From assembly GCF_044324875.1 (NCBI RefSeq), contig NZ_CP172185.1: a stretch of DNA of 64,000 nucleotides, one strand, 5' to 3'. The notes under the pieces were generated by a model. It searched no databases. It was not told the origin of the DNA and saw only the letters and a list, made by a program, of their open reading frames with translations. Shown here piece by piece: positions 1,432 through 61,190 of the stretch. Position 1 is the first letter of the stretch. Each line of letters begins with the position of its first letter. Made by a program: the position numbers and the translations under genes. Origin of the DNA: Escherichia coli (GTDB lineage: Bacteria; Pseudomonadota; Gammaproteobacteria; Enterobacterales; Enterobacteriaceae).

Positions 1432-1569
1432 GTTCCCCGTTCTTTACATTCAGGCACTTCCGTTTCCTTTAACGTTTTCGTTACTCTCTGAAGCTTGTGG
1501 TATCTGTGATGGCTGATTCCTGCCGTCATACTGCGAAATTCCGGATATCAGACCGTGGAGGATTCTGCC

Positions 1570-2142
1570 ATGCAACGCTGGTTTCTGCCTTTTCTTTCGA
1601 CTCTGTTGCTGTTACAGGGTTGTGTTGCCGCTGCGCTGGTCGGTACGGCTGCTGTGGGTACTAAAGTGTCAGTGGACCCCCGAAGTGCTGGAACGCAGAT
1701 TGATGATGAAATTCTGGAAGCAAGGGTCAGCCGTGTGCTGTCGAAGGACTCACAACTCAGGGGGGATGCGCGAATCATCGTCACAGCATACCAGGGCACT
1801 GTACTGCTGACAGGGCAGGTACCAGACCGTAGTGAAGGTGAAAAAGCCCGTCAGATTGCAGATGGTGTTGAGGGGACTGTGCAGGTATGGAATGAAATAA
1901 GGACGGGAAAACCACTTCGTGCTGATAAAACAGCTACTGATGCGTGGCTGACCACAAAAATCCGGGCACAGTTACTGAAGAGCAGCAGGGTGAAACTGTC
2001 AGATGTTAAGGTACTGACGGAGAATGGTGAAGTCTTTCTTATGGGGAGAGTTACAGAGAAGGAAGGACAGGCTGCAGCTGATATCGCCAGTCGCGTGGCG
2101 GGGGTGAAACACGTCATCACCGCATTCAGTTATATACGCTGA
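1570..2142 (+). CDS. DolP/YraP-like dual-BON-domain lipoprotein (accessory paralogue)
   Basis: GGAGGA 7 nt upstream of ATG 1570. Lipobox LLLQGC. Collinear with E. coli YraP as I remember it (QGCVAAA.VGTAAVGTK...DPRS.GTQ.DD...TAYQG.VLL.GQ...ENGEVFLMG.VTE.E...AADIASRV.GVK.V..AF). Confidence 0.8.
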   Translation: MQRWFLPFLSTLLLLQGCVAAALVGTAAVGTKVSVDPRSAGTQIDDEILEARVSRVLSKDSQLRGDARIIVTAYQGTVLLTGQVPDRSEGEKARQIADGVEGTVQVWNEIRTGKPLRADKTATDAWLTTKIRAQLLKSSRVKLSDVKVLTENGEVFLMGRVTEKEGQAAADIASRVAGVKHVITAFSYIR

Positions 2143-2149
2143 GTATGGA

Positions 2150-2176
2150 GAGCCCGTTCGTTCGGGCTCTGTATTT
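2150..2176. terminator. Bidirectional stem-loop between convergent genes
   Basis: GAGCCCG-ttcgtt-CGGGCTC followed by tgtattt. Sits between the stop at 2142 (+) and the stop at 2189 (-). Confidence 0.6.
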
Positions 2177-2188
2177 AGCTTCATTCGT

Positions 2189-2542
2189 TCATCCCTGGCG
2201 TTGCCAGGTGGCACTTCCGTTCTTACAGTCAACGCTCACACGGTACTGAATATCTGCTTTCTTTCCACGGGCAGTGAGATGCACTGTGATGACATTATCA
2301 CCTTTATTTACCGGCTCACGAAGATTCACCCAGACAACGGGACGCTGCTGACCGAGAATTTCCTGGTCATCTTTCCACTGAAACACCTGTTTCTGGAGAT
2401 AGTCCCGTTTGACGCTGGCTGCAACAGCTGATGCTTCCTGTCCTTCACATCGTGGAAAACTGACGGTTCTGTTTTTTTCAGCGGCCAGTGATGATGCGCA
2501 GATACCGAAGATGAGCAGAATGGAAGAGAGTGCTTTGTTCAT
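2189..2542 (-). CDS. YebF-family secreted protein (paralogue)
   Basis: Signal peptide ending SLAAE. Matches the remembered YebF pattern: VSFPRCEG...AASVKRDY.Q..V..W.DDQ.I.GQ..PV.WV.L...RGK.ADI.Y.VSVDCK.G. Confidence 0.75.
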   Translation of the reverse strand: MNKALSSILLIFGICASSLAAEKNRTVSFPRCEGQEASAVAASVKRDYLQKQVFQWKDDQEILGQQRPVVWVNLREPVNKGDNVITVHLTARGKKADIQYRVSVDCKNGSATWQRQG

Positions 2543-2857
2543 TTACAGGACCTCCACAGGGGATAGTTTCATTGCGGAGTTACATTTTAACAACGTAAAA
2601 CAGCATTTCCCGTAACAATCCTCACATAACGTCTTATCCCGTCACTTCCCGTTTCACATGGACAGAACAGTCTGTTTTTTAACCCGTTTTTTCAGTCATT
2701 TCCATAAACAAATCTTCGCTGACGATAAATCTTTTTTCTGCTTAATGATCGATTTTGTCGATCGATACGATATGTACAATTCATTTTACCAATGAGAAAT
2801 CCGTCTTAAAATTGGACAAATTCATATGTCTGAAGGAAACATCAGGAGAGGTGGATT

Positions 2858-3601
2858 GTGAAAAAGTTACTGGCACTCACTGCGGTAGCTGCGCTTACCG
2901 GTACGTTTTCAACGCTGACGCTGGCAGATGCGGATAAAACCGGTTTCTATATCACGGGTAAGGCTGGTGCATCTGTTATCACTCAGGATAATCAGCGCTT
3001 TAGTCAGGACTTTGGGGATGATGTTTATAAGTATAAAGGCGGTGACAAGAGCGATACGGTTTTTGGTGCTGGCCTTGCGGTGGGATACGACTTTTATCAG
3101 CACTACAATGTCCCTGTACGCACGGAAGTTGAATTCTATGGTCGCGGCTCTGCGAATTCCCGCTATCCACTGGATACATGGGAGTCCCCATTTGGAGATA
3201 GTGGCCGGGAAGACACACAAAACAGGCTCAGCGTGAATACCCTGATGGTGAACACGTATTATGATTTCCGAAACAGCAGTGCTTTCACTCCGTGGGTATC
3301 AGCCGGACTGGGCTATGCGCGGGTACATCATAAGGCAACATACACCGATACCTACTGGAATAAATCAGGCGAAGTAAGTACTTCTGCATTACATTACTCG
3401 GGATATGATAACAATTTCGCATGGAGCCTTGGTGTTGGCGTGAAATATGATGTCACTCCGGATTTCAGTCTTGACCTTGCTTATCGCTATCTTGATGCAG
3501 GTGATTCAACCCTGACGTATAAAGACGGGCAGGATACATATAAATCCTCTGTTGATGTCAGAAGTAACGAATTTACGTTAGGCGCTACATACAGCTTCTG
3601 A
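2858..3601 (+). CDS. tia: Tia/Hek/PagN-type 8-stranded outer-membrane beta-barrel adhesin/invasin
   Basis: GTG start after AGGAGAGG. Signal peptide ...LTLADA. Alternating aromatic beta-strand pattern and C-terminal ...LGATYSF. Lies next to leoCBA, as in the ETEC tia island (from memory). Confidence 0.6.
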   Translation: MKKLLALTAVAALTGTFSTLTLADADKTGFYITGKAGASVITQDNQRFSQDFGDDVYKYKGGDKSDTVFGAGLAVGYDFYQHYNVPVRTEVEFYGRGSANSRYPLDTWESPFGDSGREDTQNRLSVNTLMVNTYYDFRNSSAFTPWVSAGLGYARVHHKATYTDTYWNKSGEVSTSALHYSGYDNNFAWSLGVGVKYDVTPDFSLDLAYRYLDAGDSTLTYKDGQDTYKSSVDVRSNEFTLGATYSF

Positions 3602-3612
3602 ATGTAATATCT

Positions 3613-3660
3613 GACTACACGTTGTTAAATTCAAAATCGCAGCGTGTAGTCTGATTTGAT
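3613..3660 (+). terminator. Stem-loop downstream of tia
   Basis: GACTACACG (3613-3621) pairs with CGTGTAGTC (3643-3651), followed by tgatttgat. The loop is long (21 nt), so confidence is moderate. Confidence 0.4.
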
Positions 3661-3687
3661 AGTTTAATACAACAGACAGGTACCTTC

Positions 3688-3882
3688 ATGGCACTTCCTC
3701 AGCCCCCGGTTACGTTCATTTGTACCAGATGTAAGTGGCGTAAAACCATTGTCCATATGGGATGTACTACTGGATTTTCACATTGTCCTCAATGTGGCAG
3801 TAATTCGGTAAAACGGGAAAATGCTGGTGTTGTTACTTCATTATTTTCCTCCCTTTCATCCGTTTTCATGAAAAAATCCTGA
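3688..3882 (+). CDS. Small zinc-ribbon protein (CxxC...CxxC), function unknown
   Basis: 64 aa with CTRC...CPQC. Same strand as leoC and about 100 bp upstream of it. Confidence 0.45.
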   Translation: MALPQPPVTFICTRCKWRKTIVHMGCTTGFSHCPQCGSNSVKRENAGVVTSLFSSLSSVFMKKS

Positions 3883-3983
3883 CTGCTGTTATTTTTATAT
3901 TGCTGGTACTTTATTAAAATCCGCTAAGGTTTTGTATCAGAAATAATTCTCAGACAGTAATCGTCATTCCATTCCGGGGATTT

Positions 3984-4652
3984 ATGAATACGAAAGAACA
4001 ATTCAACCAGCTTTATGATGATATCAGTAATCAGATACGCCAGACTGTGAATGATATTTCGCAACTGAGTGTTGAGAATGAAAAAGGACAGATACATCTC
4101 AATAAAATACGGGAACAACTACAGGCATTACATGATAACTTCAATCATAAGCTGGATTACCTGAAGGAGCATGCCGAATGGGACAGGTTTACTGTCGCTT
4201 TTTTTGGCGAAACGAATGCTGGTAAAAGTACCATAATTGAGTCGTTGAGAATATTATTTGATGAAACAACCCGTCGTGAATTCCTGAATAATAATCAAAA
4301 AGATTTACAAAAGTCAGAACAGGAGTTAAGTAAAAACCTGGAACAGTTAAGCCATGATTTGGAATGCGTTTATGGTGATATTGTCGATAAATTCCGTGAC
4401 ATTAGTTTGTCTGTCATGCAGTTACGACAAATTGTTGCTGATGAGAGCGCATTACGTATAAAAATGGAAGAAGATGAAAAGAATGCCCGTCTCCTTACAG
4501 AACAGAATGAAAGTCAGGCCCGGCTGAATATTTTACAGCAACAGACGAATACCAAAGCACGTTTCAGATTATTTGTGACGGCAATTATCAGCATGATTGT
4601 GGGAGGATGTGGATTTCTGTTGCTGAATCAAGTATTCGGGAGCTTACAATGA
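3984..4652 (+). CDS. leoC: LeoC-like dynamin fragment: G1 P-loop, coiled coil and a C-terminal TM helix
   Basis: FFGETNAGKSTIIESL (G1), a long coiled coil, then FRLFVTAIISMIVGGCGFLLL. The stop overlaps the leoB start (ATGA at 4649-4652). Confidence 0.7.
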   Translation: MNTKEQFNQLYDDISNQIRQTVNDISQLSVENEKGQIHLNKIREQLQALHDNFNHKLDYLKEHAEWDRFTVAFFGETNAGKSTIIESLRILFDETTRREFLNNNQKDLQKSEQELSKNLEQLSHDLECVYGDIVDKFRDISLSVMQLRQIVADESALRIKMEEDEKNARLLTEQNESQARLNILQQQTNTKARFRLFVTAIISMIVGGCGFLLLNQVFGSLQ

Positions 4653-6373
4653 GTAATATTCCATGTTCTGCAGATAATAATCCGGAAAAATATCCGGAAA
4701 CTGTCTGTCAGGAATATAATTGCACAGGCGGCGCGGATGATATCAGGTTCTTTTTTAAAAAAAGTCTGGAGCGTACTGTTAGTTCCGTTATCCGGACCGA
4801 AACATTAAGAAATACTGCAAAACGTGTGGATGGCCTGATCATCGGAACCGGTGAGGCTGATTTTACCAAAGACAACACACACTATAATTTACGCATTGAC
4901 GATAAAGATTTTCAGTTGATTGATGTTCCGGGTATTGAAGGTAATGAAACCTGCTACACACATCTTGTTAAAAAAGCCATTGCGCAGGCTCATCTGGTGG
5001 TTTACGTCAACGGTACCAATAAAAAGCCTGAAACAAGCACCGCAAAGAAGATCAAATCTTATCTGGAATATGGCACTCAGGTTTATCCGTTGATCAATGT
5101 ACGCGGTTATTCTGATGACTATGAATTTGAGGAAGATCGTGTCGCTCTCGAACAACAGGGTAGGGGCGGTGAGGCTTTATGCCAGACTGTTGGGGTGCTC
5201 GCTTCCGTATTAGGGGCGGATGTGTTGCTGAATGGGAACTGTGTACAGGGATTACTGGCATTTTCAGCGTTGGCTTATGACGACAATACACACAGAACAA
5301 CCATTCATCCGTTACGTGATCGAAATCTGGCGGTATATCAACGTGGTTTTTTTAATGTATTTCCTTCCCGTCAGGAAATGCTGACATTCAGCCAGATTGA
5401 TGCCGTCGCTCAGACAATTAAAAATAAGGTCGCAACGTTCCGTGAGGATATTATCGAAAGTAATAAATATAAAGTTCGTGAGACTCTGGATCAATACTTA
5501 CAGGTACTTGAAGAGCAATTAAACAGCCATCACTGCTTTTTACAAAAGACAATACCGGAATTTGAAAAATGCCGGACTGCGTTCAAAAATGCGACTGGTG
5601 AATTTGAACGCCGTATTGCGAACAGTCGTCGCAATCGCTGGAATAGCCTTTTTAATGACCTAGGGAATGCCTGTGATGGTATTGTCGAACATAATTTTGG
5701 TGACAGCAGTGCTATTTCCACACTGATACGTAATGAGTATGAAAAGCGCCGTAAAATGATGGAACAAATGATGCAGGAGGATACTGAAGAGAGTGTAAAG
5801 GTATTACAAGAGCAAACTCTTCAGGCGGTAAATCGTTTGCTGGAAGATATTCACAATGTGGAACTTCAACACCCCCTCAGTTTTGCTAACAGCCGCAGCA
5901 TCGAGTTTAGTGGAGAGATGGTACCTGGTTACGAGCTGGGGATGGCTGATTTCAGTTCAATGGTTTTAAAAATTGGCAGCTATGCAATGTCAGGCAGTGC
6001 AATTGGCAGCATCTTTCCCGTTATTGGTACGCTTGTTGGCTCTGCGGTTGGTGCGTTGCTTGGCATAATAATGACTATTGCGGGTATTTTTACCAGTAAA
6101 GCGTCAAAAATCCGCAAAGCACAAGGAAAAATACGCAACAAGCTGGAGGAAGTGCGGGATAAATCTCTCTGCAGCATACCTGATGAAACCCGCCTCCTGG
6201 TTGCAGCTATTGAAAAAGAACTTGAGTGTGGCCTGCTGCAAAAACTCAACGATATGCAGGTGGATCTGCAACAGCCTGTTGCCATATTCGAAACTCAAAT
6301 CAGTCGAATCACAACATTAAAGAAACAATTGGAGAAAATGCCTTATGGAACAATTCAAACAGTTCAGTATTGA
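4649..6373 (+). CDS. leoB: LeoB-like bacterial dynamin-like protein lacking its own P-loop
   Basis: The internal ATG at 4649 is coupled to the leoC stop. DVPGIEG (G3) is present but no GxxxxGK[ST]. A hydrophobic paddle (GSAIGSIFPVIGTLVGSAVGALLGIIMTIAGIF) lies near the C-terminus. Confidence 0.7.
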   Translation: MSNIPCSADNNPEKYPETVCQEYNCTGGADDIRFFFKKSLERTVSSVIRTETLRNTAKRVDGLIIGTGEADFTKDNTHYNLRIDDKDFQLIDVPGIEGNETCYTHLVKKAIAQAHLVVYVNGTNKKPETSTAKKIKSYLEYGTQVYPLINVRGYSDDYEFEEDRVALEQQGRGGEALCQTVGVLASVLGADVLLNGNCVQGLLAFSALAYDDNTHRTTIHPLRDRNLAVYQRGFFNVFPSRQEMLTFSQIDAVAQTIKNKVATFREDIIESNKYKVRETLDQYLQVLEEQLNSHHCFLQKTIPEFEKCRTAFKNATGEFERRIANSRRNRWNSLFNDLGNACDGIVEHNFGDSSAISTLIRNEYEKRRKMMEQMMQEDTEESVKVLQEQTLQAVNRLLEDIHNVELQHPLSFANSRSIEFSGEMVPGYELGMADFSSMVLKIGSYAMSGSAIGSIFPVIGTLVGSAVGALLGIIMTIAGIFTSKASKIRKAQGKIRNKLEEVRDKSLCSIPDETRLLVAAIEKELECGLLQKLNDMQVDLQQPVAIFETQISRITTLKKQLEKMPYGTIQTVQY

Positions 6374-8078
6374 AAAACTGGCTGCGATTAATTCGCTATC
6401 ACAGTTGCGCGGAATGTTAGAAATGTTGGGAGATTTGGGGATAGACATCAGTGACGATTTACAAAAAATTACTTATGCAATTAATTCCATCGAATCTGAT
6501 GTTCTGCGTATTGCTTTGTTGGGGGCGTTTTCTGATGGCAAAACCAGCGTTATCGCTGCATGGATGGGTAAGATAATGGATGATATGAATATTTCCATGG
6601 ATGAGTCCTCTGATCGGTTGAGTATTTACAAACCGGAAGGTCTGCCAGACCAGTGTGAAATTGTTGATACACCCGGGCTGTTTGGTGATAAAGAGCGTGA
6701 GGTGGACGGGAAACAGGTGATGTATGAAGACCTGACCAAACGCTATATATCTGAAGCTCATCTGATTTTATACGTGGTTGATGCCACTAACCCGCTAAAG
6801 GAGAGCCACAACGACATCGTAAAATGGGTATTGCGCGATTTGAATAAACTCTCTTCAACCATTTTTGTTATCAATAAAATGGATGAAGTGACTGATCTGA
6901 CAGAGCAGGCGCTGTTTGACGAGCAGGCAGCAATTAAAAAGGCGAATCTTAAAGGTAAATTGCAGCGTGCAGCTGCTCTTACCGCTCAGGAGTGTGATCA
7001 GCTAAATATCGTCTGCATTGCTTCAAACCCAAACGGTCGTGGCTTAACGTACTGGTTTGATAAACCAGAACATTATGAAAGTCGTTCGCGCATTAACGAT
7101 CTTAAAAATGCTGCCACCGACATACTGAAAACTAATGTGCCAGAGGTATTGTTAGCGAAAACAGGTATGGACGTGGTGAAAGATATTGTCATTCAGCGTG
7201 CCACCCAGGCAAGCAGACAGTTCGATGAACTGAATCTGTTTGTTGAGAAGAATGACGAGGACATGTGTCGTTTTCAGAACGACATTAAGCAAAGTCGCAT
7301 TGAGGTTAAACGGCTGGCCGGAGAGTTATTTGAAGAGCTGAACCTGATGGAAAAAAAGCTGATGAGTCAACTGCGTTCACTCGATCTGGACGATATCCGC
7401 CCGTTTATGGACGATGAGCTGGGATATACAGAAGATGGGGTTGGCTTTAAGCTTCATCTGCGCATTGAGCAGTCAGTTCATCGTTTTTTCGAACAGTCGA
7501 AAGCGGTCTCGCAACGCTTATCTGATGATATCACTTGTCAGTTGAGCTCCAGCGAGAGCTTTCTAAGTGGCTTAGGCGAAGGCGCATTTCGTTCTTTAGG
7601 CGGGACCTTTAAGGGAGTGTCGAAAATTAGTCCGGCGACGCTCAAAACGACTATTTTGACCGCACGCGATACGATTGGCAAACTAACGGGATATACCTAT
7701 AAATTTAAACCCTGGGAGGCCACGAAACTGGCCGGAAGCATTTCCAAATGGGCTGGTCCTGTGGGTGCAGTGTTTACGATTGGTTCTGATCTATGGGATG
7801 CCTATAAAGCACACGAGCGGGAGCAGGAGCTGAAAAAAGTAAAAGAATCGCTGGCGAAAATCATTAAAGAGCAGTTTGAATATATCTATGACGTACTGAG
7901 TTCTGATGAGAAAATATTCGCCTTTTTTGCACCGCAGATCCAAAAAATGGAGCAGGTTGTTACTGAGCTGGCAGAGAAAAGCCAGGCTATTCGCGACAAC
8001 CGGCAGAAACTGAGCATTATTCAGACGCAGCTTGCACAACTAATGGTTCCAGCCACAGAAAACCATACTGTCAGATAG
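6345..8078 (+). CDS. leoA: LeoA-like bacterial dynamin-like GTPase
   Basis: 577 aa. G1 GAFSDGKTS, G3 DTPGLFG, G4 INKMD. The length matches the LeoA I remember from ETEC H10407. Confidence 0.8.
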   Translation: MEQFKQFSIEKLAAINSLSQLRGMLEMLGDLGIDISDDLQKITYAINSIESDVLRIALLGAFSDGKTSVIAAWMGKIMDDMNISMDESSDRLSIYKPEGLPDQCEIVDTPGLFGDKEREVDGKQVMYEDLTKRYISEAHLILYVVDATNPLKESHNDIVKWVLRDLNKLSSTIFVINKMDEVTDLTEQALFDEQAAIKKANLKGKLQRAAALTAQECDQLNIVCIASNPNGRGLTYWFDKPEHYESRSRINDLKNAATDILKTNVPEVLLAKTGMDVVKDIVIQRATQASRQFDELNLFVEKNDEDMCRFQNDIKQSRIEVKRLAGELFEELNLMEKKLMSQLRSLDLDDIRPFMDDELGYTEDGVGFKLHLRIEQSVHRFFEQSKAVSQRLSDDITCQLSSSESFLSGLGEGAFRSLGGTFKGVSKISPATLKTTILTARDTIGKLTGYTYKFKPWEATKLAGSISKWAGPVGAVFTIGSDLWDAYKAHEREQELKKVKESLAKIIKEQFEYIYDVLSSDEKIFAFFAPQIQKMEQVVTELAEKSQAIRDNRQKLSIIQTQLAQLMVPATENHTVR

Positions 8079-8190
8079 ATGCATAATGCAGTTCCGTACA
8101 TCCGAATTTGAATAACGAATACTCTTTCAGAACTATCTGGATTGAAAGGATGCCTTCTGCTAATCATCGGAAATATGGCTTACTTAAGAC

Positions 8191-8400
8191 ATGAGGGATA
8201 AATCAGTGAGATTATTGTTAAAGGGACTGACTGGAATGGTTATGGCCTGGTTGGTGATCTATTTTGGTATGAAATTATTTTTTCTCACAGATCAGATTCA
8301 TCCGGCATTAAGAACTCTTGTCATGCTGGGGATGTTATTTATGTTGATAATGATTCCCTGTGTAATATGTGGTTCTTTTTTACGAAAGAGGCAGAAATGA
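8191..8400 (+). CDS. Small 2-TM membrane protein, unknown function
   Basis: 69 aa with two hydrophobic helices. AT-rich context. Confidence 0.4.
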   Translation: MRDKSVRLLLKGLTGMVMAWLVIYFGMKLFFLTDQIHPALRTLVMLGMLFMLIMIPCVICGSFLRKRQK

Positions 8401-8485
8401 TAATTCGTCCTGTAATAATGACGAATCAACAAGAAAAATTGATGCATAAGAATGATACATATACTTATCTGTATTAAAGGATGAT

Positions 8486-8971
8486 TTGATGAACATAAAA
8501 AATATTTTTCTGTTTCTTTTTTTTAGTTTATTAGCAGGTAATGCCTTTGCTGCTGCAACAGTGATGGGGTATTGTGAACTGAAGAATGGAAAAACGCTTT
8601 CTGTATGGGCTGGTGATAATGGAAGTTATAATTATACTTTATATGGCAAAAGTGGGACGACAGAGTTACAGCTAAAAGAAGGATTGTTTGGCGTCAGAGC
8701 TTTTCACTATTATCATTCCATACGTGATGGAGTGGGAGCGTTCAAGTACCTCCGGTTTAATAAAGGTGAATATGATTATGTTGTCATGTCGTATGAGGAT
8801 GGTCGTTCCCCCTATTTTGATGGTGTGATAGTATTCAGAAATGGAAACCGAATTGCTCGTCTCGAATGTGCCCATCCATTTACAGGAGCATTTTCTGTTG
8901 AAGAACTGGATGCAGGACATAATCAGGACAGTGAAGATATGGCTGAATATATTATGAGTAATTTTACCTGA
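8486..8971 (+). CDS. Secreted protein of unknown function
   Basis: Signal peptide ...AGNAFAAA. 161 aa. Confidence 0.55.
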   Translation: MMNIKNIFLFLFFSLLAGNAFAAATVMGYCELKNGKTLSVWAGDNGSYNYTLYGKSGTTELQLKEGLFGVRAFHYYHSIRDGVGAFKYLRFNKGEYDYVVMSYEDGRSPYFDGVIVFRNGNRIARLECAHPFTGAFSVEELDAGHNQDSEDMAEYIMSNFT

Positions 8972-9051
8972 ATATAATAAATTTAAATATATCAGAATAT
9001 TTTCTGACGATATTGCAATGAAAACTGAATATAATTTTCAGTGGATGAGAA

Positions 9052-9086
9052 AAACGGACTGATGAAATTATGGTTCTCAGTCCGTT
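9052..9086. terminator. Bidirectional terminator between convergent genes
   Basis: AACGGACTGA...TCAGTCCGTT stem flanked by an A-run (left) and a T-run (right). Confidence 0.6.
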
Positions 9087-9105
9087 TCATCATAAACTTT
9101 ATCAA

Positions 9106-9870
9106 TCAATCCAGTGTGATTTCTGCAGCCAGTTCTTCTGAGTCTGCATTTGCTATTTTGCTACGTAAGACTGCAACATAAATTACGGCAGGTATTGTAA
9201 CCCTGTAGGCTGTACCACCAACATCCACAAGAGTCCAGATTGCGGTAATCGCCCATCCTACAGGACCAGTTAATACAGCCATTGTTCTGGTCAAAATAGT
9301 ATTACCGGCAAAACTTAATCCTCTTCCGATTAAAGCTTTTAAAATAGCATTAGCCATAATTAATGTAAGCTGATACGATTTGAATCCACCTGCTTTAAAT
9401 ATGAACTGGAATGTTGAAACAAGTGCTTTCGGTGTAAGCCCATCGAGTTTTTTTACACCAATCTCTCGCGCAAATTCTTTCAGTTCATCATCACTCATTT
9501 TTTCAAATGCATCATTGAGTATTTTCAACATGAGGCATTGTTCTATATTTTCAATTGTGCTATTTTTGTTATAGTTAACTTTTAGTTTATCACAAACATC
9601 GGTAAGCACCTCTCTGTATTTAACACCTCGTCCTCCTCTGAGAAGTGTCGCAAAAGTATTACCGCCAAAGCATTGAATTTCAGCTGCAATTTCTCGCCAG
9701 TACTTACTGTGCTGAGGATTATATCTTTTGTAATATTCATTTCCAGAAAGTTCTTCAGTAAAGCGTTTCTTTCCGTCCTTATCATATATTAAGCAATCAA
9801 CCAAATCATTCAGTTCTGCATCAGAACATTTTGATAAAAACTCAAGGTCTTCATCATAACGATATGCCAT
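9106..9870 (-). CDS. YaaW-like protein (DUF3944 N-terminus plus UPF0174-type membrane-associated C-terminus)
   Basis: MAYRYDEDLEFLSKCSDAELNDLVD... N-terminus and ...GPVGWAITAIWTLVDVGGTAYRVTIPAV C-terminus resemble E. coli YaaW (memory). Confidence 0.6.
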   Translation of the reverse strand: MAYRYDEDLEFLSKCSDAELNDLVDCLIYDKDGKKRFTEELSGNEYYKRYNPQHSKYWREIAAEIQCFGGNTFATLLRGGRGVKYREVLTDVCDKLKVNYNKNSTIENIEQCLMLKILNDAFEKMSDDELKEFAREIGVKKLDGLTPKALVSTFQFIFKAGGFKSYQLTLIMANAILKALIGRGLSFAGNTILTRTMAVLTGPVGWAITAIWTLVDVGGTAYRVTIPAVIYVAVLRSKIANADSEELAAEITLD

Positions 9871-11051
9871 AAAATTTCCTATTTAAAGGTCAGGTGTTAA
9901 TGCTGACATGCGATTTTGAGACGTATAAATAGTCCTTGTCTATTATATTCTTATCAATTTTATTTTCAATGTTTTTATCTTCTTTTTATACACTCTTAAA
10001 AAGAACCGATTTTATTACCTGAGCATGTAATGTAAAAGTATATGTGTGATGATTAAAGTTTTTATCCTTATTTTTCCTGTAAGGACGAGCTTTCCGTGGT
10101 TGCTGTTCTCGTATGTATGCGGGGTATTACTTTCACTAATGGTTAAAATTCTTTCCTTCCGGTTAAAGCATTCATGTGTTTGTATTTTTCTTTGCTATTT
10201 GTTTTTTAGTACAGAATTTAATTAGTGTGGTTGTGATTTTTGTTGATATCACCACGCGCATTTTATATGAAATAGCCACATAACTTTCAACAAAATATAA
10301 AAATAAAATTATGCTATAGTAAACAACAGATTTTTATGTTTATGAAAGATGACCACTTTTTTAATTTGACTGAATTTTTTAAGATGCTTTTGAGTTGTGA
10401 AATATATTTTTCTTTATTGCTTTTTGGAATGTTGACGGGGCGTAGTTATGATTAATATAACAGAAGTTTCAGGAACGCTTTTTTCTTTTAAATGCCTGCG
10501 CATGACTTGTTCAATAATGTGTTTTCATCATATTTTTTTGGCATCAATACAATAATTAAAGATATAACGTTAAAATATTATTTATTGGCTTTTCCTGATG
10601 GAGTAAAAACAAATGTAACAACTAACTGCATGATAAATAAGTAGAATGGTCAGTATCATGTATATTATTTGGGTATAAGTGGTATTTGTAAAGAATCAGT
10701 TGTGTTACTCCGGAATATATCTCTTTGAGAGAGCAGAAGTGAAACAGATATTCTCTTGAAAGTATTGCATTATCGTTACCGTTTTTATATCAGAGGCTGA
10801 AAATACGTATTTTTATAAACAGGGTGGAGGCATTTTTGTGTTATGTATGGATTTTCAAACCGGGTGAATCATCCAGACAGGTAATAATATAATAAGAAAT
10901 GTTGCTGCCAGGCTAAAACAGGAACGTGTACTTCTGTGAAAATGTTGATGCGAAGCTACCATTATTTGGGGTAGGGTATCTTCGCTCATCAGATGATATT
11001 GAATATGGTCGCCTGAAATCAGAAATTAAAAAATACAAATGGTAGTTAACT

Positions 11052-11078
11052 CCCCACCAACCGCTGTGGTTGGTGGGG
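11052..11078 (-). terminator. 11-bp GC-rich stem-loop 10 nt downstream of the integrase stop
   Basis: CCCCACCAACC-gctgt-GGTTGGTGGGG. There is no immediate U-tract on the minus strand, so the terminator call is tentative. Confidence 0.35.
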
Positions 11079-11087
11079 GGGGATGGC

Positions 11088-12281
11088 TTATTTCGTTTGT
11101 ACGTTTTTCTCCATAAGTGAATCAATGTAATCAGCGTACCACTGCATCATTTCACGACGTCCATCGAGATACAGGGCATGATTATAGGTACCCCTGATGG
11201 AGTTTTTATCCACATGCGCTAACTGCATTTCAATCCAGGCAGAATTAAAGCCCTGTTCGTGCAGAATTGTGCTCATTGTGTGACGAAAACCATGGCCGGT
11301 TGCTCTGCCATCGTAACCGATGCGTTTTAGTACCATATTGATGCTGGCTTCACTCATCGGTTTGTTAACATCGCAACGTCCGGGGAATATAAGGCGATAC
11401 TGCCCGGTAAAACGATGCAATTCCTGCAGCAGTGAAATGGCCTGGCGTGACAGAGGAACAATATGATGCCTGCGCATTTTCATTCGCTCTTCAGGGATAT
11501 GCCAGAGTGCGTTGTCAGAATCAATTTCTGACCATTCGGCCAGCCGCAATTCAATCGTTCTGAGTCCGGTCAGCATCAGCAGGCTCGTCGCCATACGGGT
11601 GACAGGACTGCCATGATAGTCAGCGAGCTTCCGGAGAAAAACAGGAAGTTCATCCGCTCTCAGATGGGGAAAATGTGCGGTTTTTGGTGCCGCCAGCGTA
11701 CTGGTCAGTTCTGATGCAGGATTGACAGTGGCACGTCCTGTGGCAATGGCATAACGGAAAATCTGATTGCAGTATTGACGGACCTTGCGTAATTTTTCCA
11801 GAGAGCCACGTTTTTCAATACGACGCAAAATCTCCAGCATTTCCAGCGGGAGGATATCAGTCACGCTCCGGTTGCTCAGATACGGGAAAACGTCTTTATC
11901 CAGCGCTTCCAGTACGCTTCTGGCGTAACTGTCAGACCATGATAAAGATTTATGATGATGCCATTCCATTGCGAGAGCATGAAAGGTGTTGGTGACAGAG
12001 ATTTTCTGAGAGAGTTTTTCCCTTCGCTTCTTTTCACCGGGATCTCCACCCTCGGATATAATTTTTCGTGCATCGTCGCGTCTGGTTCTGGCTTCAGCAA
12101 GGGAGACGTCAGGATAGACGCCGAGGGACAGTTTTTTCTCCTTTCCTGCTGTTCTGTACTTAAGGCGCCAGTAGCGTGCTCCCGTGGTTTTTACCAGCAG
12201 ATATAAACCACGTTCATCAGAAAGTTTATAATCTTTGTCTTTAGGTCTTGCCGTTTCGACCTGTCTGGCTGTAAGTGCCAT
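11088..12281 (-). CDS. P4-type tyrosine integrase (DUF4102 N-terminus)
   Basis: MALTARQVETARPKDKDYKLSDERGLYLLVKTTGARYWRLKY..., HGFRHT (HxxR) and ...IRGTYNHA (catalytic Tyr). Adjacent to the tRNA-Phe fragment. Start chosen at ATG 12281 rather than the upstream Met at 12311. Confidence 0.9.
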   Translation of the reverse strand: MALTARQVETARPKDKDYKLSDERGLYLLVKTTGARYWRLKYRTAGKEKKLSLGVYPDVSLAEARTRRDDARKIISEGGDPGEKKRREKLSQKISVTNTFHALAMEWHHHKSLSWSDSYARSVLEALDKDVFPYLSNRSVTDILPLEMLEILRRIEKRGSLEKLRKVRQYCNQIFRYAIATGRATVNPASELTSTLAAPKTAHFPHLRADELPVFLRKLADYHGSPVTRMATSLLMLTGLRTIELRLAEWSEIDSDNALWHIPEERMKMRRHHIVPLSRQAISLLQELHRFTGQYRLIFPGRCDVNKPMSEASINMVLKRIGYDGRATGHGFRHTMSTILHEQGFNSAWIEMQLAHVDKNSIRGTYNHALYLDGRREMMQWYADYIDSLMEKNVQTK

Positions 12282-12457
12282 ATGGGGGCCCCTTAAACTG
12301 ACCGAACACAATGAGCCCCCAAATGTGCCCCCATTTAATGCTTGATTCAGGGGGTGTTCAATAGAATTCGGTGGAGTTCAAAATGTCCGGAACGATTATA
12401 AATCAGTGATTATACATGAATTTCGTGGAGTGCGGGGGATGTGTGTAGAAGTGAAGG

Positions 12458-12511
12458 TGGTGCCCTGACTCGGAATCGAACCAAGGAAACGGGGATTTTC
12501 AATCCCCGTGC
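12458..12511 (-). other. 3' fragment of tRNA-Phe (anticodon arm to CCA), an att-type direct-repeat remnant
   Basis: The reverse complement reads GCACGGGGATTGAAAATCCCCGTTTCCTTGGTTCGATTCCGAGTCAGGGCACCA (GAA anticodon loop, T-arm, acceptor 3' strand, CCA). No complementary 5' acceptor strand or D-arm exists upstream. Two differences from the E. coli tRNA-Phe I remember. Confidence 0.8.
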
Positions 12512-12558
12512 CATAATTGGCTGTGTCAGTTGGTTACACACCATTGAGGTGTGTACTA

Positions 12559-13437
12559 ATGAAAATACTGCCCGTTGTCTCCACAAAAGGTGGCGAAGGT
12601 AAATCAACACAATCCGCAAACCTGGCTGGTTTTCTCGCCGATGCAGGTATCCGTACCCTGCTGATTGACGGAGATCATGCTCAGCCCACGGCAAGCAACA
12701 TCTTTCCGCTGACATATGAAGCGTCAGCCGGTCTTTTTGAGTTGCTGATGCGCACGGCTGACCTCAGTCATCCCGATAACATCATTTCCCGCACGGCTAT
12801 CGACGGACTCGATCTGATAGTCTCCAATGACCCTCATGAGCAGTTAAAAACTGCGATGCTTCACGCCCCGGATGGTCGTCTGCGCCTCCGGAATGTCCTG
12901 CAGCATCCGCTTTTTCTGAACAACTACGATGTCATTGTAGTTGATTCTCAGGGAGCACGTTCTGTCATGCTCGAAATGATTGTGCTGTCGGCCACTGATT
13001 CGGTTGTCGGGATGGTCAATCCGGTACTCCCTGATGTGCGCGAGTTTATTCGGGGCACTGTCAATGTTATGGAGAACCTGCTGCCTTACCGGGAGCTGGG
13101 GATACCCCTGCCGAAAGTACGCACGCTGGTTAACTGCATGGATTATACGGCACTGGCCAGGAAGACGCTGGATGAGCTGGCCGGAATTATTCAGACCGGT
13201 CGTTACAGCAGACAGTTACCTGAAGGTGCGGTTTCCCTTCTTTCCACACAGATTTACGACCTGAATATTTACAAGCAGGGGCATGCGGCTGGTCAACCCG
13301 TACATCGTCTCGAAAAAGAATCCACACGTCGCAGTGATTCCGCGCTTGTCACGATGCACAGCCTGGCCTGTGAACTCTTTCCTGAGTGGAAACAGGCGTT
13401 TGACGGGCTGCTGGCGAACGGGGGAATACGTCAGTGA
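12559..13437 (+). CDS. parA: ParA/Soj-type partition ATPase
   Basis: MKILPVVSTKGGEGKSTQSANLA (deviant Walker A). Start only 47 bp from the tRNA fragment. Confidence 0.9.
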   Translation: MKILPVVSTKGGEGKSTQSANLAGFLADAGIRTLLIDGDHAQPTASNIFPLTYEASAGLFELLMRTADLSHPDNIISRTAIDGLDLIVSNDPHEQLKTAMLHAPDGRLRLRNVLQHPLFLNNYDVIVVDSQGARSVMLEMIVLSATDSVVGMVNPVLPDVREFIRGTVNVMENLLPYRELGIPLPKVRTLVNCMDYTALARKTLDELAGIIQTGRYSRQLPEGAVSLLSTQIYDLNIYKQGHAAGQPVHRLEKESTRRSDSALVTMHSLACELFPEWKQAFDGLLANGGIRQ

Positions 13438-14240: not shown

Positions 14241-14511
14241 GTTGCCATCCTCATCATGGTTGTTATCAATGCCGGACGGCAGTTGCTGATGATTTGTGTT
14301 CATAAGGTATTTCTCTTCGTAAACATGTTGATTATGAGCGCAAATATGCTGTACGTACCTTCTGACCGGGGTCGGCAAACTTACCGGTCGGAAAATGTAC
14401 AGAAAGTTATGGGCCTTTTATGCCCTGCAACTGTTCGTCCGGCACCCGTTTTCGTTTTTTTGCATGGTGGGTTTGCTGTGAAACAGGCTCCGTTTGCCCG
14501 GGAGGTGGCGT

Positions 14512-15900
14512 ATGTCTGAACGCTATATTCCACGCTCCGTTGATGCAGAGCAGGCCGTGCTGGGCGGCCTGATGCTCGATAATGAACGCTGGGATGAGGT
14601 GGTACTGATGCTCCGGGGGGAGGATTTTTCTCTGGCCGCACACCGGGTGATATTCCGCACCATGTCAGAGCTGGCAACCAGCGGTCAGCCGTTCGACCTC
14701 ATCACGCTGAGTGAGCATATTGAGAAAACAAACAATATTGAGGCACTGGGTGGTTTCGCTTATCTGGCTGAACTCAGCAAAAATACGCCTTCTGCAGCCA
14801 ATATTATCGCTTATGCCCGTATTGTTGCTGAAAAGAGCATGCTGCGTCAGTTGCAGGAGACGGGGAATGCGCTGATTACGGATGTGGCCGCACCGGATGC
14901 GACACCACGCACTGTTCTTGAATCCGCTGAACGTCGGCTCTTTTCACTTTCACAGACTGGCATGTTGCATGAGCGATGTGAAGTCAGTCTCACCTCGGCT
15001 ATGGAGCTGGCGCTGCGTCAACTGGAAGAGGGACTGAACGCCGGCGGGATGACGGGCACGCCCACGGGATTTGATGAACTGGATGAGATGACCTGTGGTC
15101 TGCAGCCCGGCGACCTCATTCTTCTGGCTGCACGCCCGTCTATGGGGAAAACAGCGCTGGGCCTTACCTTCTGTCTTAATGCCCTGTGTAACCGGACCGA
15201 TGAAACGGTATTTCTTTTCAGTATCGAAATGTCCCGGGAGCAGCTGATTCTGCGTGTCCTGTCAATGCTCTCCAGGGTGGAGCTGACACGTCTTCGCAGC
15301 AGCATGATGGATGATGAAGAGTGGGCGAGAGTCACGGCAACCATGGGACGCTTCATGAATGAAGCGTCATTCATCGGAGATGGAAACCGCCTGATAATTG
15401 ATGACACCTCCTTCCAGACGCCGTCATCGCTGCGTGCCAGCGCCCGTCGTTATGTCCGTCTGTATGGCAGACCTTCCCTGATAATGGTTGATTACCTCCA
15501 GCTGATTCGTTCTCCGGACCAGGAGAACCGAACGCAGGAAATTGCGGAAATATCCCGCGCCCTTAAGGCGTTAGGTAAAGAGCTGGGATGCCCGGTACTG
15601 GCACTGTCTCAGCTTAACCGTCAGGTGGAGCAGCGGGCGGATAAGCGCCCCAATAACGGTGACCTGCGTGATTCCGGGGCGCTGGAGCAGGATGCTGACC
15701 TCATTATGTTTATTTACCGTGATGAGGTTTATAACTCTGGCACGCTGGATAAGGGCGTTGCTGAAATCATTGTGAGCAAACAGCGGCAGGGGCCAACCGG
15801 AACGATACGGGTGAACTTCGACGGCCGCTACACCCTGTTTTCACCGTTTGAACGTGGATGGAATTTTGACCGTGCCGGAGGAAATGCGTATGTCAATTAA
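14512..15900 (+). CDS. dnaB: Replicative DNA helicase DnaB
   Basis: PRSVDAEQAVLGGLMLD N-terminus, Walker A ARPSMGKTA, IMVDYLQL, SQLNR, RDSGALEQDADL. Confidence 0.92.
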   Translation: MSERYIPRSVDAEQAVLGGLMLDNERWDEVVLMLRGEDFSLAAHRVIFRTMSELATSGQPFDLITLSEHIEKTNNIEALGGFAYLAELSKNTPSAANIIAYARIVAEKSMLRQLQETGNALITDVAAPDATPRTVLESAERRLFSLSQTGMLHERCEVSLTSAMELALRQLEEGLNAGGMTGTPTGFDELDEMTCGLQPGDLILLAARPSMGKTALGLTFCLNALCNRTDETVFLFSIEMSREQLILRVLSMLSRVELTRLRSSMMDDEEWARVTATMGRFMNEASFIGDGNRLIIDDTSFQTPSSLRASARRYVRLYGRPSLIMVDYLQLIRSPDQENRTQEIAEISRALKALGKELGCPVLALSQLNRQVEQRADKRPNNGDLRDSGALEQDADLIMFIYRDEVYNSGTLDKGVAEIIVSKQRQGPTGTIRVNFDGRYTLFSPFERGWNFDRAGGNAYVN

Positions 15901-17539
15901 ACGAAATCATTCCGTTGATCTGGGAGCTGCCATCATGCAACCGGGCCGTCAGACCAGCACGACGGGTAACGTGGTGGCGCTGGGGGAAACACCGATGATT
16001 CTGACGCTGGATCAACTGCGCCCCAACCCGGATAACCCGAGGACCACGCGTAATCCCCGGTACGACGATATTAAAAGTTCAATTTTCTCCCGTGGACTGG
16101 ATACGGTGCCCAAAGTCACCCGGATACCTGAGAGTGAGCCGGATATCTATATTTTCAGCGATGGTGGTAACACGCGATATCAGATCCTGAAAGAGCTGTG
16201 GGAGGAGACCGGCGATCAGCGTTTCTATCGTATTCATGTGCTTTTCAAGCCATGGCCGGGACGGCTTCAGTGCGTCATTGGTCACCTGGCTGAGAATGAA
16301 GTCAGGGGCGAACTGACGTTTATTGAAAAGGCCCGGGGTATCCATAACGCCCGGATGATTTATGAGGAGTCGATGCAGCGAACCGTGACGATCAGGGAAC
16401 TGGCGTCACTGCTGACGGATGAAGGACTTCCGGTAAGCCACTCATCTGTCAGCAGGATGGAGCATACTCTGAAATATCTGTATCCGTGGATCCCCGATCT
16501 TCTGGAATCAGGATTAGGAAGACCGCAGATCAATTCACTGTTGTCTCTCCGGCAGGATGCGGAACGCATCTGGGGACAGTTTGCGGTGGCAACAGAGAAC
16601 GGGGCGGATTTTGACCGCGTGTTTGGTGAATGCTGCAGCAAATTCAATTCACCGGAGCTCTGGTCACTGGAGATGTTCCGGGATGAGCTGATTGGTGATC
16701 TGCTGAAAGCGTTACCACATCCGGTGCTGGATTATGACCGCTGGTTGCTTGAACTGGATCCGCGGGAGCGTAACCGACGTCACCATTTTGGCGAACCTGA
16801 GCCGGTGCTCATTCCCGCAGACAGTGATGCGATGCCAGAGCCTGCGACTGACGGTGTGTCGGCAGTGACGGCGGAGAAGAACAGCGGAAGGGAGCAGTCT
16901 GTGATTTCCGCACCGGCTGACCATGACACAGTCATGAATACGGAGCAATCCCCGGCTGGAAAGGCGGAGAGTTCAGTTATCGAACAACGCGAAGAACGCC
17001 GTAGAAAGGAAGTCCAGCCGGATATGTATGGTGGTGAAGAAACATACAGCGGCGATTACGAAGAGGATGGCGATACCCGTGATGCTGCGGATCTGCCGGT
17101 AACGTCACCGGAAGAGGGGGCTCAGCAGAGCAGCGGTGAAATATTCAGTGAGCCGGTATTCAGTGTTGGTGAACTGGATGATATCGAATATCTGCAGAAT
17201 GAGGCATTTCACCTGGCATGGGAGCTGGCGTCACACACAGGCTGTGTCGATGAGCTGGCTATGGACAGGGAAAGCGAACTGTCTGCGGGATTCGGCGCGG
17301 CAGAGGCGAATTGTTCTCCGGTCATGGCATTTCTTGTCAGGCTGACCGGTGAGGAGGTTCTGCGGGTTAATCCGGTTTCTCTTGATGCACTGATGATTGG
17401 TGGCAGTACTGAAGAAGAGCCACCACTGCTGGATGATGAGCATGCCGGGAAGTTACTCCGTCTGCTTGGGGTGTTGCGTCGTCTGCGGGGGCTGCAGCGC
17501 CAGGTGGAAGAAGAGAACGTGGAGGGGCGTGATGAATAA
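15890..17539 (+). CDS. ParB N-terminal-domain protein (ICE PFGI-1-class ParB-like) with an acidic C-terminal half
   Basis: LDQLRPNPDNPR...FSDGGNTRYQIL motif. The start overlaps the dnaB stop. Confidence 0.8.
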   Translation: MSIKRNHSVDLGAAIMQPGRQTSTTGNVVALGETPMILTLDQLRPNPDNPRTTRNPRYDDIKSSIFSRGLDTVPKVTRIPESEPDIYIFSDGGNTRYQILKELWEETGDQRFYRIHVLFKPWPGRLQCVIGHLAENEVRGELTFIEKARGIHNARMIYEESMQRTVTIRELASLLTDEGLPVSHSSVSRMEHTLKYLYPWIPDLLESGLGRPQINSLLSLRQDAERIWGQFAVATENGADFDRVFGECCSKFNSPELWSLEMFRDELIGDLLKALPHPVLDYDRWLLELDPRERNRRHHFGEPEPVLIPADSDAMPEPATDGVSAVTAEKNSGREQSVISAPADHDTVMNTEQSPAGKAESSVIEQREERRRKEVQPDMYGGEETYSGDYEEDGDTRDAADLPVTSPEEGAQQSSGEIFSEPVFSVGELDDIEYLQNEAFHLAWELASHTGCVDELAMDRESELSAGFGAAEANCSPVMAFLVRLTGEEVLRVNPVSLDALMIGGSTEEEPPLLDDEHAGKLLRLLGVLRRLRGLQRQVEEENVEGRDE

Positions 17540-22203: not shown

Positions 22204-23469
22204 ATGGCGCTACCTGCAGAAAGCCTTATTGCGCATACGCTCAGAAAAATGAAGGCCAGCATGGCAGAGAAAGCCAGTCGTGAGGACGGGAGGATACGCA
22301 GTGGGCTGTTGTTTACCGGCAATGTTCACGATTCGTATCCCCGCAGGCTGTTGCTGGATACGCGCCTTTCTCCCCTTGATAAAACTGCGTGGATGATGAT
22401 TCGTCTGCATGCCCTGAATAATGAGGGCGCAGTATTTCCGACGTACGATGAACTGCAGTTACAACTGGCATCTCCCGGGCGCGGGAAGGCGTCCCGTGAA
22501 ACAGTGAGCCGGGTGCTGACAATGCTGCGGCTTACGGGCTGGCTGAGTCTGTGTAAGCGGGTCAGGGATGAAAAAGGGCGGGTCCGGGGGAATATTTACG
22601 CCCTGCATGATGAGCCACTGACCTGCTGTGATGCAGAAAAGTTTGACCCACGATACCTGGATATGGTTCTGGATACTGTGAGCAGGAGCCGGAACAAGAC
22701 AATCCGGCACACAGCCAGTGAAGTGCTCAGTGATATCAAAAATGAGCCCGGTATGCGGCATTACCACAGCCATATCACTCTGTTTGAATCGCGTATGGGG
22801 GCAGCACAGACACCTGGTCAGCTGGCGGCGCGTCAGCGGGTGAACCCGATGGTGAATGAAAACACAGGCAGAGAGAGTGGTTCGGATTCCGTACATACCC
22901 CTGCACCTGTCGTGCAGGTAAACGAACTCAGTGATCCATTAATCGAACTCAGTGAAAAACAGGAAATGAGCCCACTCAGTTCGGATTCCGTACTGCCTGA
23001 AAAATCAGCAACTTATTACTCGGTTCGGAAACCGAACAATTACGTACGTAATATCACACACAGTGTGATTAAAAATACGTACGTATTGCCTGAGTCGGTG
23101 AAATCGCAAATCAGCGCAGAAGACACGGACATGCTGACAAAACAACTGCAGGCGTTGCCGGAAGAACTGGCAGGTAGTGTGCTGAGCAGCCTGTTACAGA
23201 TGCTCAGCAAAAACACGCTCCAGAATCCGGTTGGCTGGATGCTGGCTGTGATGAAACTTGCGCGTGAGGGACGTTTTAATACGCCGGATATGTCCGTGCA
23301 TGAATCCCGGTCGCCAGCCCGTGCACCATATCAGCCTGTGTACAACCGTGATGAACGTGAACGTCGTCGCGGGAAAGTGGCGTCACCTGAAACGGTGAGC
23401 AACATTGTCGCAGAATTCCGGGCCAGCCTGAAACGTGCAAATGCTGCCCGTCTGGCGGCGCGTGTGTGA
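22204..23469 (+). CDS. STY4528-family island replication-type protein (winged-helix region in the N-terminal half)
   Basis: YPRRLLLDTRLSPLDKTAWMMIRL...FPTYDELQLQL...SRETVSRVLTMLRLTGWLS resembles a Rep/HTH DNA-binding module. Immediately followed by the iteron array. Confidence 0.6.
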   Translation: MALPAESLIAHTLRKMKASMAEKASREDGRIRSGLLFTGNVHDSYPRRLLLDTRLSPLDKTAWMMIRLHALNNEGAVFPTYDELQLQLASPGRGKASRETVSRVLTMLRLTGWLSLCKRVRDEKGRVRGNIYALHDEPLTCCDAEKFDPRYLDMVLDTVSRSRNKTIRHTASEVLSDIKNEPGMRHYHSHITLFESRMGAAQTPGQLAARQRVNPMVNENTGRESGSDSVHTPAPVVQVNELSDPLIELSEKQEMSPLSSDSVLPEKSATYYSVRKPNNYVRNITHSVIKNTYVLPESVKSQISAEDTDMLTKQLQALPEELAGSVLSSLLQMLSKNTLQNPVGWMLAVMKLAREGRFNTPDMSVHESRSPARAPYQPVYNRDERERRRGKVASPETVSNIVAEFRASLKRANAARLAARV

Positions 23470-60940: not shown

Positions 60941-61190
60941 TAACTGTCGCTTCGGCGACCACCAATGTTCCATGAGGCCTGTGAGGAACGCCTTCGGGTG
61001 GCCCACGTCGCTCCGGCGACCACCAATGCTCCATCTGACCTGTGAGGAGCGCCTTCGGGTGGTCAGTTTTACACCTCCGTAGCCTGAAAGGAGCTGTGCG
61101 TGCTGATGGGATATGTTCCCGGAAGTACGGGTAAATCTGCACACCTTTGCGAGCAGATGTCACCACGGTTTACGTGATGATGAAGGCATT
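60941..61190 (+). ncRNA. STAXI-like tandem-pseudoknot element, copy 2 (two units plus tail)
   Basis: Near-identical to 26921-27240 minus one unit. Same orientation. Confidence 0.55.

Follow-up and report, generated by a model that had tools for sequence, protein, structure and literature searches.

A tRNA-Phe 3' fragment between a P4-type integrase gene and the parA end of an SPI-7/ICEEc2-class ICE in Escherichia coli

Layout of the junction

The junction described here lies in a 64,000-nucleotide stretch of Escherichia coli DNA (contig NZ_CP172185.1; the window), in which the 3' part of a tRNA-Phe gene stands between the integrase gene of a tia/leo island and parA, the first and inward-reading gene at this end of an ICE that runs off the right edge. 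The features, in order along the window, are as follows.

1432-11087: body of the tia/leo island, recognized by identity to strain CM2 and to eight further loci and by Pfam domains
within 1432-11087: BON/DolP-like gene and YebF (Pfam)
2858-3601: Tia-like outer-membrane protein (Pfam)
3984-8078: LeoC/B/A dynamin-like genes (Pfam)
9106-9870: DUF3944 gene (Pfam)
11088-12281, minus strand: 397-aa tyrosine integrase of the P4 type, belonging to the tia/leo island (Arm-DNA-bind_3, Phage_int_M, Phage_integrase; PRK09692, 303 bits)
12282-12457, minus strand: integrase leader, the predicted island-side arm of the tRNA-proximal att; identical after CCA in loci L009-L011 and L014
12458-12507, minus strand: 3' part of tRNA-Phe (nucleotides 27-76) with canonical T-stem, probably displaced (tRNA alignment and relatives)
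12508-12558, plus strand: parA-side arm of the ICE; same sequence in CM2, L013 and TUM1886
12559-13437, plus strand: ICE parA, a soj-like Walker ATPase (AAA_31, CbiA and ParA domains; annotated ParA in relatives)
13438-64000, plus strand: remainder of the SPI-7/ICEEc2/PAPI-1-class ICE (NCBIfam; relatives)
14494-15900: dnaB-PI (dnaB_SPI-7_type, 684.6 bits against a cut-off of 655)
15848-17539: parB (ICE_PFGI_1_parB, 378 bits)
22204-23469: STY4528-family gene (STY4528_fam, 387 bits)
24629-26647: topB (topB, 814 bits)
35007-37160: traD (conj_TOL_TraD, 1086.7 bits)
43232-46081: traC ATPase (traC_PFL_4706, 1401.1 bits)
ICE part of the window: TIGR03752 gene (595.7 bits) and TIGR03755 gene (546.8 bits)

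The reverse complement of positions 12458-12507 corresponds, with two differences, to nucleotides 27-76 of E. coli tRNA-Phe; on the plus strand it reads TGGTGCCCTGACTCGGAATCGAACCAAGGAAACGGGGATTTTCAATCCCC. It comprises the whole anticodon arm, the variable loop, the T-arm, the 3' acceptor strand, the A73 discriminator base and CCA; two substitutions, C68 to A at 12466 and G46 to U at 12488, set it apart from the canonical sequence. Since this 50-mer occurs once in the window and shuffles give an expectation of 0.00, the match to tRNA is real and not a product of chance. The original prediction, which had placed a 54-bp fragment at 12458-12511, was right as to the tRNA-Phe 3' parts, but clear homology covers 50 nt and 12508-12511 carry only a degenerate 'GCA(C)'; likewise, its 47 bp to parA hold when counted from 12511, whereas the parA start at 12559 is 51 nt from the end of the tRNA homology. 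The absence of a 5' half stood up to closer inspection: nothing resembling a 5' acceptor strand precedes the fragment, ARAGORN found zero tRNA genes over the whole window, and Rfam produced no tRNA match in the window at its gathering score of 29 bits, a permissive search yielding only a partial match of 21.1 bits that spans model positions 9-63. A complete cloverleaf with 5' acceptor strand and D-arm was found at the fragment by neither program, which also answers the earlier concern that a full tRNA had been missed here.

When the window was searched for a second tRNA-Phe 3' end with the 50-mer and with a 23-mer, at up to three mismatches, none was found, so that the partner repeat of neither element is visible there. 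Of the ~50-bp direct repeat of the tRNA-Phe 3' part that flanks ICEs of this class, the window has the single copy at 12458-12507; its partner would lie past the window, within the intact gene, as it does in CM2 and TUM1886. For the island, the search with the 23-mer revealed no distal 19-23-bp repeat (attR) within the window, and, given that an IS21 element cuts the island at 1431/1432, this repeat may lie outside the window or have been lost.

On the left side, a P4-type integrase with arm-binding, central and catalytic domains (three Pfam domains) is located directly 3' of the tRNA-Phe sequence and is transcribed in the same direction, its ATG at 12281 being 176 nt past the CCA (12458), in keeping with the tRNA-then-integrase order that had been proposed. 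The exact 397-aa protein starting at this ATG is found in 113 blocks of the assembly index. The ATG at 12281 is the real start, and the TTG at 12311 is not. Within the leader, perfect TATAAT boxes occur twice on the minus strand, at 12414-12409 and at 12400-12395; we infer them to be promoters. The island is 98.1% identical to that of CM2 and 99.8-99.96% identical to those of eight loci that encode an identical integrase. A similar P4-type integrase beside ynjA (H13) occupies a different, non-tRNA site and is uninformative in this respect.

The DNA to the right of the fragment, as had been proposed, belongs to an ICE, with all NCBIfam matches above their curated cut-offs. The core maintenance genes of the class (ParA, SPI-7-type DnaB, ICE-type ParB, STY4528-family protein and TopB) are present together with its conjugation genes (TraD, TraC_PFL_4706, TIGR03752 and TIGR03755), a gene content that identifies the element as a predicted member of the SPI-7/ICEEc2/PAPI-1 class (MPF-G type). 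The parA-side arm includes a degenerate D-arm-like hairpin (GCCA/UGGC), which is used in the partial Rfam tRNA alignment, and a GAGG ribosome-binding site at 12546-12549; two other types of parA-side arm are found in APEC 102026 and in E24377A, respectively. The cargo of the ICE is a mosaic that includes iha, restriction-modification genes and IS elements.

The island and the ICE in related genomes

Among 5426 complete E. coli genomes, 11 have integrase, fragment and parA side by side. Public genomes have contained this junction for years, the complete genome of E24377A being one of them. The closest complete genome is that of CM2, with an identical parA arm and a right-hand ICE part that is 99.7% identical. 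The order of genes in CM2 begins with yqgA, an intact tRNA-Phe gene (pheV), a 366-aa XerC/D-like recombinase, TraI, UvrD and the type IVb pil operon, and continues through the remaining ICE to ParA, the tRNA fragment, the P4 integrase, the DUF3944 gene and leoA. APEC 102026 has the same layout, except that the P4 integrase heads a raffinose/sucrose island. The recombinase next to the intact tRNA-Phe gene is XerC/D-like in both genomes (330-366 aa), and in CM2, APEC 102026 and TUM1886 alike a XerC-like integrase and TraI occupy the ICE end opposite parA, beside an intact tRNA-Phe gene. The ICE of the window is 99.6-99.7% identical to that of TUM1886 and to part of that of CM2; taken together, the ICEs of CM2, APEC 102026 and TUM1886 are 96-99.7% identical to it.

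Each of the two elements also occurs without the other. TUM1886 carries the ICE only, the fragment being followed by the native pheV terminator and then by the kps locus, and MEW carries the island only, with a tia/leo island and a related P4-type integrase behind an intact pheV and no ICE. The exact integrase of the window is located directly behind an intact pheV in three loci (L010, L011 and L014) and directly behind an intact pheU, beside cutA-dsbD, in another (L009), and it follows ParA-ended ICEs of two arm types elsewhere (L013 as against L012, L015 and L016). All of these loci, whether island-only or ICE-adjoining, share one leader sequence after the CCA. Because the island with its integrase and the ICE are found singly as well as together, they are separate elements.

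The intact pheV beside the ICE integrase in CM2, APEC 102026 and TUM1886 is a hybrid gene, in which the T-stem reads GGTGG/CCGCC as against the canonical CTTGG/CCGAG; the change is doubly compensated, and ARAGORN calls the gene as tRNA-Phe. By contrast, the fragment at the parA end has the canonical T-stem in every genome compared. This difference indicates that the ICE attP brings its own nucleotides 49-76 and that recombination takes place 5' of nucleotide 49, and, with the ICE-type T-stem in the intact gene and the canonical one in the fragment, it argues that the fragment is the original, displaced 3' part. The ICE-specific arm starts 5' of G27 (G28 in the E24377A-type arm), which, combined with the T-stem difference, places the crossover within the 21-22 nt GGGGATTGAAAATCCCCGTGTC, that is, within tRNA nucleotides 27-48, which form the anticodon arm plus the variable loop. 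Marinobacter, Alcanivorax, Xenorhabdus and other Gammaproteobacteria, at least 120 species representatives in all, have the GG/CC version as their native tRNA-Phe 3' part, and homologues of the ICE integrase (39-58% identity) lie right beside the GG/CC tRNA-Phe gene in 8 of 120 species-representative loci, among them those of Kluyvera, Superficieibacter, Xenorhabdus, Erwinia and Pantoea. The presence of integrase homologues beside the GG/CC tRNA fits an att segment carried by the element family.

Origin of the junction and order of arrival

On the basis of these comparisons, the fragment most probably is the 3' part of the original tRNA-Phe gene (pheV or pheU), displaced by the ICE within a tandem array of two independent elements, a reading to which we assign a probability of about 0.9. 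The XerC-like integrase of the ICE would have recombined the ICE attP with the tRNA-Phe gene inside nucleotides 27-48. At the integrase end, the ICE's own copy of nucleotides 49-76, with its compensated T-stem, would keep the tRNA gene whole, and the old 3' part would have been pushed to the parA end along with whatever followed it, in this case the P4-type integrase and the tia/leo island. The 50-nt fragment is accordingly predicted to be both the parA-side att of the ICE, on its anticodon-arm side, and the tRNA-proximal att of the P4-type island, on its T-loop-to-CCA side. The window ends inside the ICE, and for this genome the conclusion of a tandem array, with an intact tRNA and the ICE's integrase beyond the right edge as originally proposed, rests on relatives, namely the gene order of CM2 and APEC 102026 and the existence of island-only and ICE-only genomes. 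We infer from CM2 that the far end of the ICE is similar here and would be situated ~34 kb past the window edge.

The mechanism would have the ICE arriving after the island. This order is likely, and it is favoured by the finding that ICE arms of two types border one and the same island (99.9% identical); the original prediction that the ICE inserted second into an island-bearing tRNA-Phe gene remains the likely course of events, although the map is the same for either order and the structure as such is no proof. In the opposite sequence of events, the same tandem array would have been built by an ICE that came first and an island that then entered the displaced fragment, and the final map would be identical. 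We regard this as unlikely, although it has some weight: the fragment still contains the T-loop-to-CCA target of P4-type integrases, an ICE-only state with an intact fragment exists, the island occupies different tRNA-Phe sites (pheV and pheU), and in E24377A a 22-bp P4-type repeat abuts the arm of the ICE integrase, so that there a P4-type island entered after the ICE. On the other hand, the intact hybrid gene offers a more obvious target than a fragment does, and, with ICEs that transfer themselves and two arm types next to a 99.9%-identical island, a resident island is the simpler assumption. This evidence against the reversed order is not decisive.

The two substitutions in the fragment deserve separate consideration. 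When the window was compared over 11 kb with the eight loci that have an identical integrase, three strictly private substitutions were found (1835, 12466 and 12488), all of them C:G-to-A:T, along with one at 2746 that is common to the window and one of the eight loci. Two of the three private changes fall inside the 50-nt fragment (roughly P = 6e-5, computed post hoc). G46 to U is inside the crossover interval of nucleotides 27-48, and C68 to A is inside the 23-bp P4-type repeat. The two-substitution variant of the fragment has no match in species-representative genomes or in JGI metagenomes, so it is not the native tRNA-Phe allele of any sampled species, and, as the 5:68 acceptor pair would be lost with C68 to A, it is not a functional allele. 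Decay of a non-functional remnant and sequencing error of the oxidative type are the simplest readings; unless they are such errors, the substitutions may impair att function for either element. A more far-reaching proposal, that the half tRNA is a composite att site whose activity in this strain has been abolished by its two private substitutions, appears quite improbable to us. If the substitutions were real and selected, the ICE and the island would be locked together as one non-excising block; alternatively, the P4 integrase would be left with the option of excising both together, from the hybrid pheV to a distal repeat, and the ICE would then carry the tia/leo island along by cis-mobilisation.

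The adjacency of integrase and parA was originally also given a second interpretation, under which both genes belong to one element and the junction is its attP-like site, seen through tandem copies or a collapsed circular form in the assembly. The recurrence of the adjacency in 11 complete genomes is compatible with this idea, yet integrase and parA do not always travel together: the P4 integrase is found with the island where there is no ICE, and the ICE occurs without the P4 integrase. Moreover, the ICE owns an unrelated XerC-like integrase at its other end, beside the intact tRNA gene, a true ICE attP would show the GG/CC T-stem where the fragment has the canonical one, and what lies to the left is cargo of the tia/leo island, no part of the ICE backbone. 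The single-element interpretation has therefore been abandoned as very improbable.

Equally little can be said for an overlooked tRNA gene, functional or unusual, to which the fragment would belong: PGAP calls a 78-nt tRNA at the equivalent spot in APEC 102026 and E24377A, RefSeq labels in relatives read 'tRNA-Ser' or 'tRNA-OTHER', and the Rfam alignment of positions 9-63 uses the D-arm-like hairpin of the ICE arm, but that score is below gathering, ARAGORN is blank for the window and for five relatives, no 5' acceptor strand exists in the window-type arm, and the 5:68 pair would not survive C68 to A.

Expression of parA and comparison with known systems

The original statement that the parA promoter must overlap or cross att is a reasonable conjecture. 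In 12200-12700, at the integrase end of the ICE and at the ICE-only junction, a scan revealed no promoter of the canonical sigma-70 type, and in the same regions the only terminator on the relevant side was the native pheV terminator of TUM1886. An extended -10-like element, TGcCATAAT, is positioned at 12509-12517, precisely where core and arm meet, and the APEC 102026-type arm has TGtCATAAA in the equivalent place; the likeness may be accidental, as this stretch also is a degenerate remnant of a tRNA D-stem. Expression of parA might come from a weak promoter at the junction or, once the ICE has excised, from transcripts that start on the integrase side and read across attP. The ICE integrase, attP and parA would all point the same way in the circle, and no intrinsic terminator was detected past the integrase on that strand, so that read-through across attP would be possible.

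The soj gene of PAPI-1 is reportedly expressed from the element's circular form (PMC2704930), and, in ICEclc, an outward promoter drives the integrase and not parA (PMC5812530), with an upstream transcription start mapped by 5'RACE for parA-shi (PMC6812849). The arrangement predicted here from the sequence resembles PAPI-1 soj and ICEclc Pcirc in that an end-proximal gene beside att has little room for a promoter, and it differs from ICEclc in that the outward promoter of the Pcirc type serves the integrase there and parA-shi has its own upstream start.

The ICE itself is of a familiar kind. Its core genes match those of ICEEc2 (E. coli BEN374) and of the enterobacterial tRNA-Phe ICEs SPI-7 (S. 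Typhi), CTnscr94, YAPI, ICEPan and ICEKp2, which belong to the wider class of PAPI-1/pKLC102/ICEclc, and the relatives of the window ICE also possess a TraI relaxase, a type IVb pil operon and, next to tRNA-Phe, a XerC-like integrase. There is no difference in kind from ICEEc2 and the others; here, however, the parA end abuts another island and not the native tRNA flank. Several reports describe insertion of ICEEc2-type ICEs in pheV and pheU (PMC11537424, PMC13127887, PMC6761156, PMC4458695), and excision to a circle and conjugative transfer are reported for related ICEs in PMC13127887 and in PMC6761156, the latter citing Roche et al. 2010.

The island has equally close counterparts. P4-type pheV islands, of which a detailed survey exists, are bounded by 19-23-bp repeats that extend from the T-loop to CCA, and about one third of GI-pheV are without a distal repeat (PMC11537424). 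The window island is like GI-pheV in having a P4-type integrase immediately 3' of a tRNA-Phe sequence and in the same orientation; in contrast to GI-pheV, its att is a displaced half gene, probably, instead of an intact gene, and the distal repeat is absent within the window. With the tia/leoA island of ETEC H10407 it shares the Tia-like outer-membrane protein and LeoABC dynamin-like cargo, but the H10407 tia island has been reported at selC (PMC7545054) whereas the window island is at tRNA-Phe.

Tandem arrays at shared att sites are textbook material. The array proposed here is like the known ones in that two elements lie head to tail at one target with an internal att copy between them. In known arrays, however, one related integrase recognises all att copies, whereas the window array would involve two unrelated integrases acting on different sub-sites, with the ICE integrase using the anticodon arm and that of the P4-type island the segment from the T-loop to the 3' end, and it follows from these different sub-sites that the internal copy would be a composite of two att sites.

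The arrangement as such is already known, since pheV/pheU ICEs, P4-type pheV islands and tandem arrays have all been described, and it opens no new question. It matters mainly for annotation: the fragment marks the boundary between elements at a crowded tRNA-Phe hotspot, the integrase adjoining parA is not that of the ICE, and the labels 'tRNA-Ser' and 'tRNA-OTHER' that the RefSeq pipeline assigns at this spot are explained. The hybrid tRNA with its imported, compensated T-stem is a clean marker of the direction of integration and of the crossover interval.

The ICE arm and the origin of attP

Next to the 50-nt fragment of tRNA-Phe, the core-proximal part of the ICE arm (12508-12522) can form a hairpin (GCCA...UGGC) resembling a D-arm, which an alignment to the Rfam tRNA model places at tRNA positions 9-25, and a degenerate 'TA.G.CA' is kept at the hairpin spot in all three types of ICE arm. 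The attP of the ICE therefore seems to have been derived from a longer stretch of a tRNA-Phe gene. The fragment together with the arm carries RefSeq (PGAP) labels at two loci, 'tRNA-Ser' in APEC 102026 (L002 7344-7421) and 'tRNA-OTHER' in E24377A (L003 7344-7422), both corresponding to about 12458-12535 of the window. At this spot in the same two genomes ARAGORN found no tRNA; the PGAP calls are probably a mis-annotated half gene.

Most differences private to the window relative to its near-identical relatives (12466 and 12488; also 1835, 2772 and 16930) are C:G-to-A:T transversions, and two of the three strictly private differences in 11 kb, those at 12466 and 12488, fall inside the tRNA fragment. 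These changes could be the signature of 8-oxoG-type mutation, reflect a sequencing artefact or stem from selection at the att site. Between the fragment and the start of the P4-type integrase gene, the minus strand contains two perfect TATAAT hexamers (12395-12414), one of whose positions also has TATAAT in the other integrase allele (MEW, CM2 and APEC 102026). Neither hexamer was called by a consensus promoter scanner because a -35 match is absent; both are likely to be integrase promoters, predicted to diverge from parA.

Hybrid pheV genes and arrays of elements

An intact hybrid pheV adjoins the ICE integrase in three relatives:

L004 11850-11925, intact hybrid pheV (CM2)
L006 14081-14156, intact hybrid pheV (APEC 102026)
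L018 33793-33868, intact hybrid pheV (TUM1886)

The T-stem of these genes reads GGTGG/CCGCC in place of the CTTGG/CCGAG of their canonical E. coli counterpart. The 3' part of the hybrid pheV is the native tRNA-Phe sequence in Marinobacter, Alcanivorax, Xenorhabdus and others, and in several Enterobacterales a homologue of the ICE integrase adjoins a tRNA-Phe of the GGTGG/CCGCC type.

At the E24377A locus L019, a 22-bp P4-type repeat (TTCGATTCCGAGTCCGG-CACCA, 31173-31194) lies immediately against the ICE's integrase-side arm and has an Ag43/CbtA island upstream; pheV in this strain therefore appears to hold three elements in a row, an ICE between two islands. Compared with each of the eight loci whose integrase is identical, the tia/leo island of the window is itself broken by an insertion sequence at 1431/1432:

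1-1431, IS21-family element (istA); many E. coli chromosomes and plasmids carry copies with 100% identity to it

Mosaic structure of the ICE

Within the ICE, Rfam matches over the gathering scores comprise four to STAXI and one to EFASI (26927-27233, 60945-61117, 61642-61764 and 63740-63911), the right-hand ones flanking two internal genes:

61883-62839, Integrase_1 (PF12835) gene
62843-63583, gene with a zinc-finger domain and an integrase N-terminal domain (Phage_int_SAM_2)

The Integrase_1 gene lies inside the ICE and is distinct from the integrase at the att end of the element.

The parA-proximal ICE (12.5-29 kb) shares about 96-97% identity with the APEC 102026-type ICE; from about 23.5 kb onward, identity to the TUM1886 ICE is 99.6-99.7%, and this TUM1886-like part includes the cargo gene iha (siderophore receptor/adhesin). 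Judged from its sequence, the ICE (12450-64000) is a mosaic.
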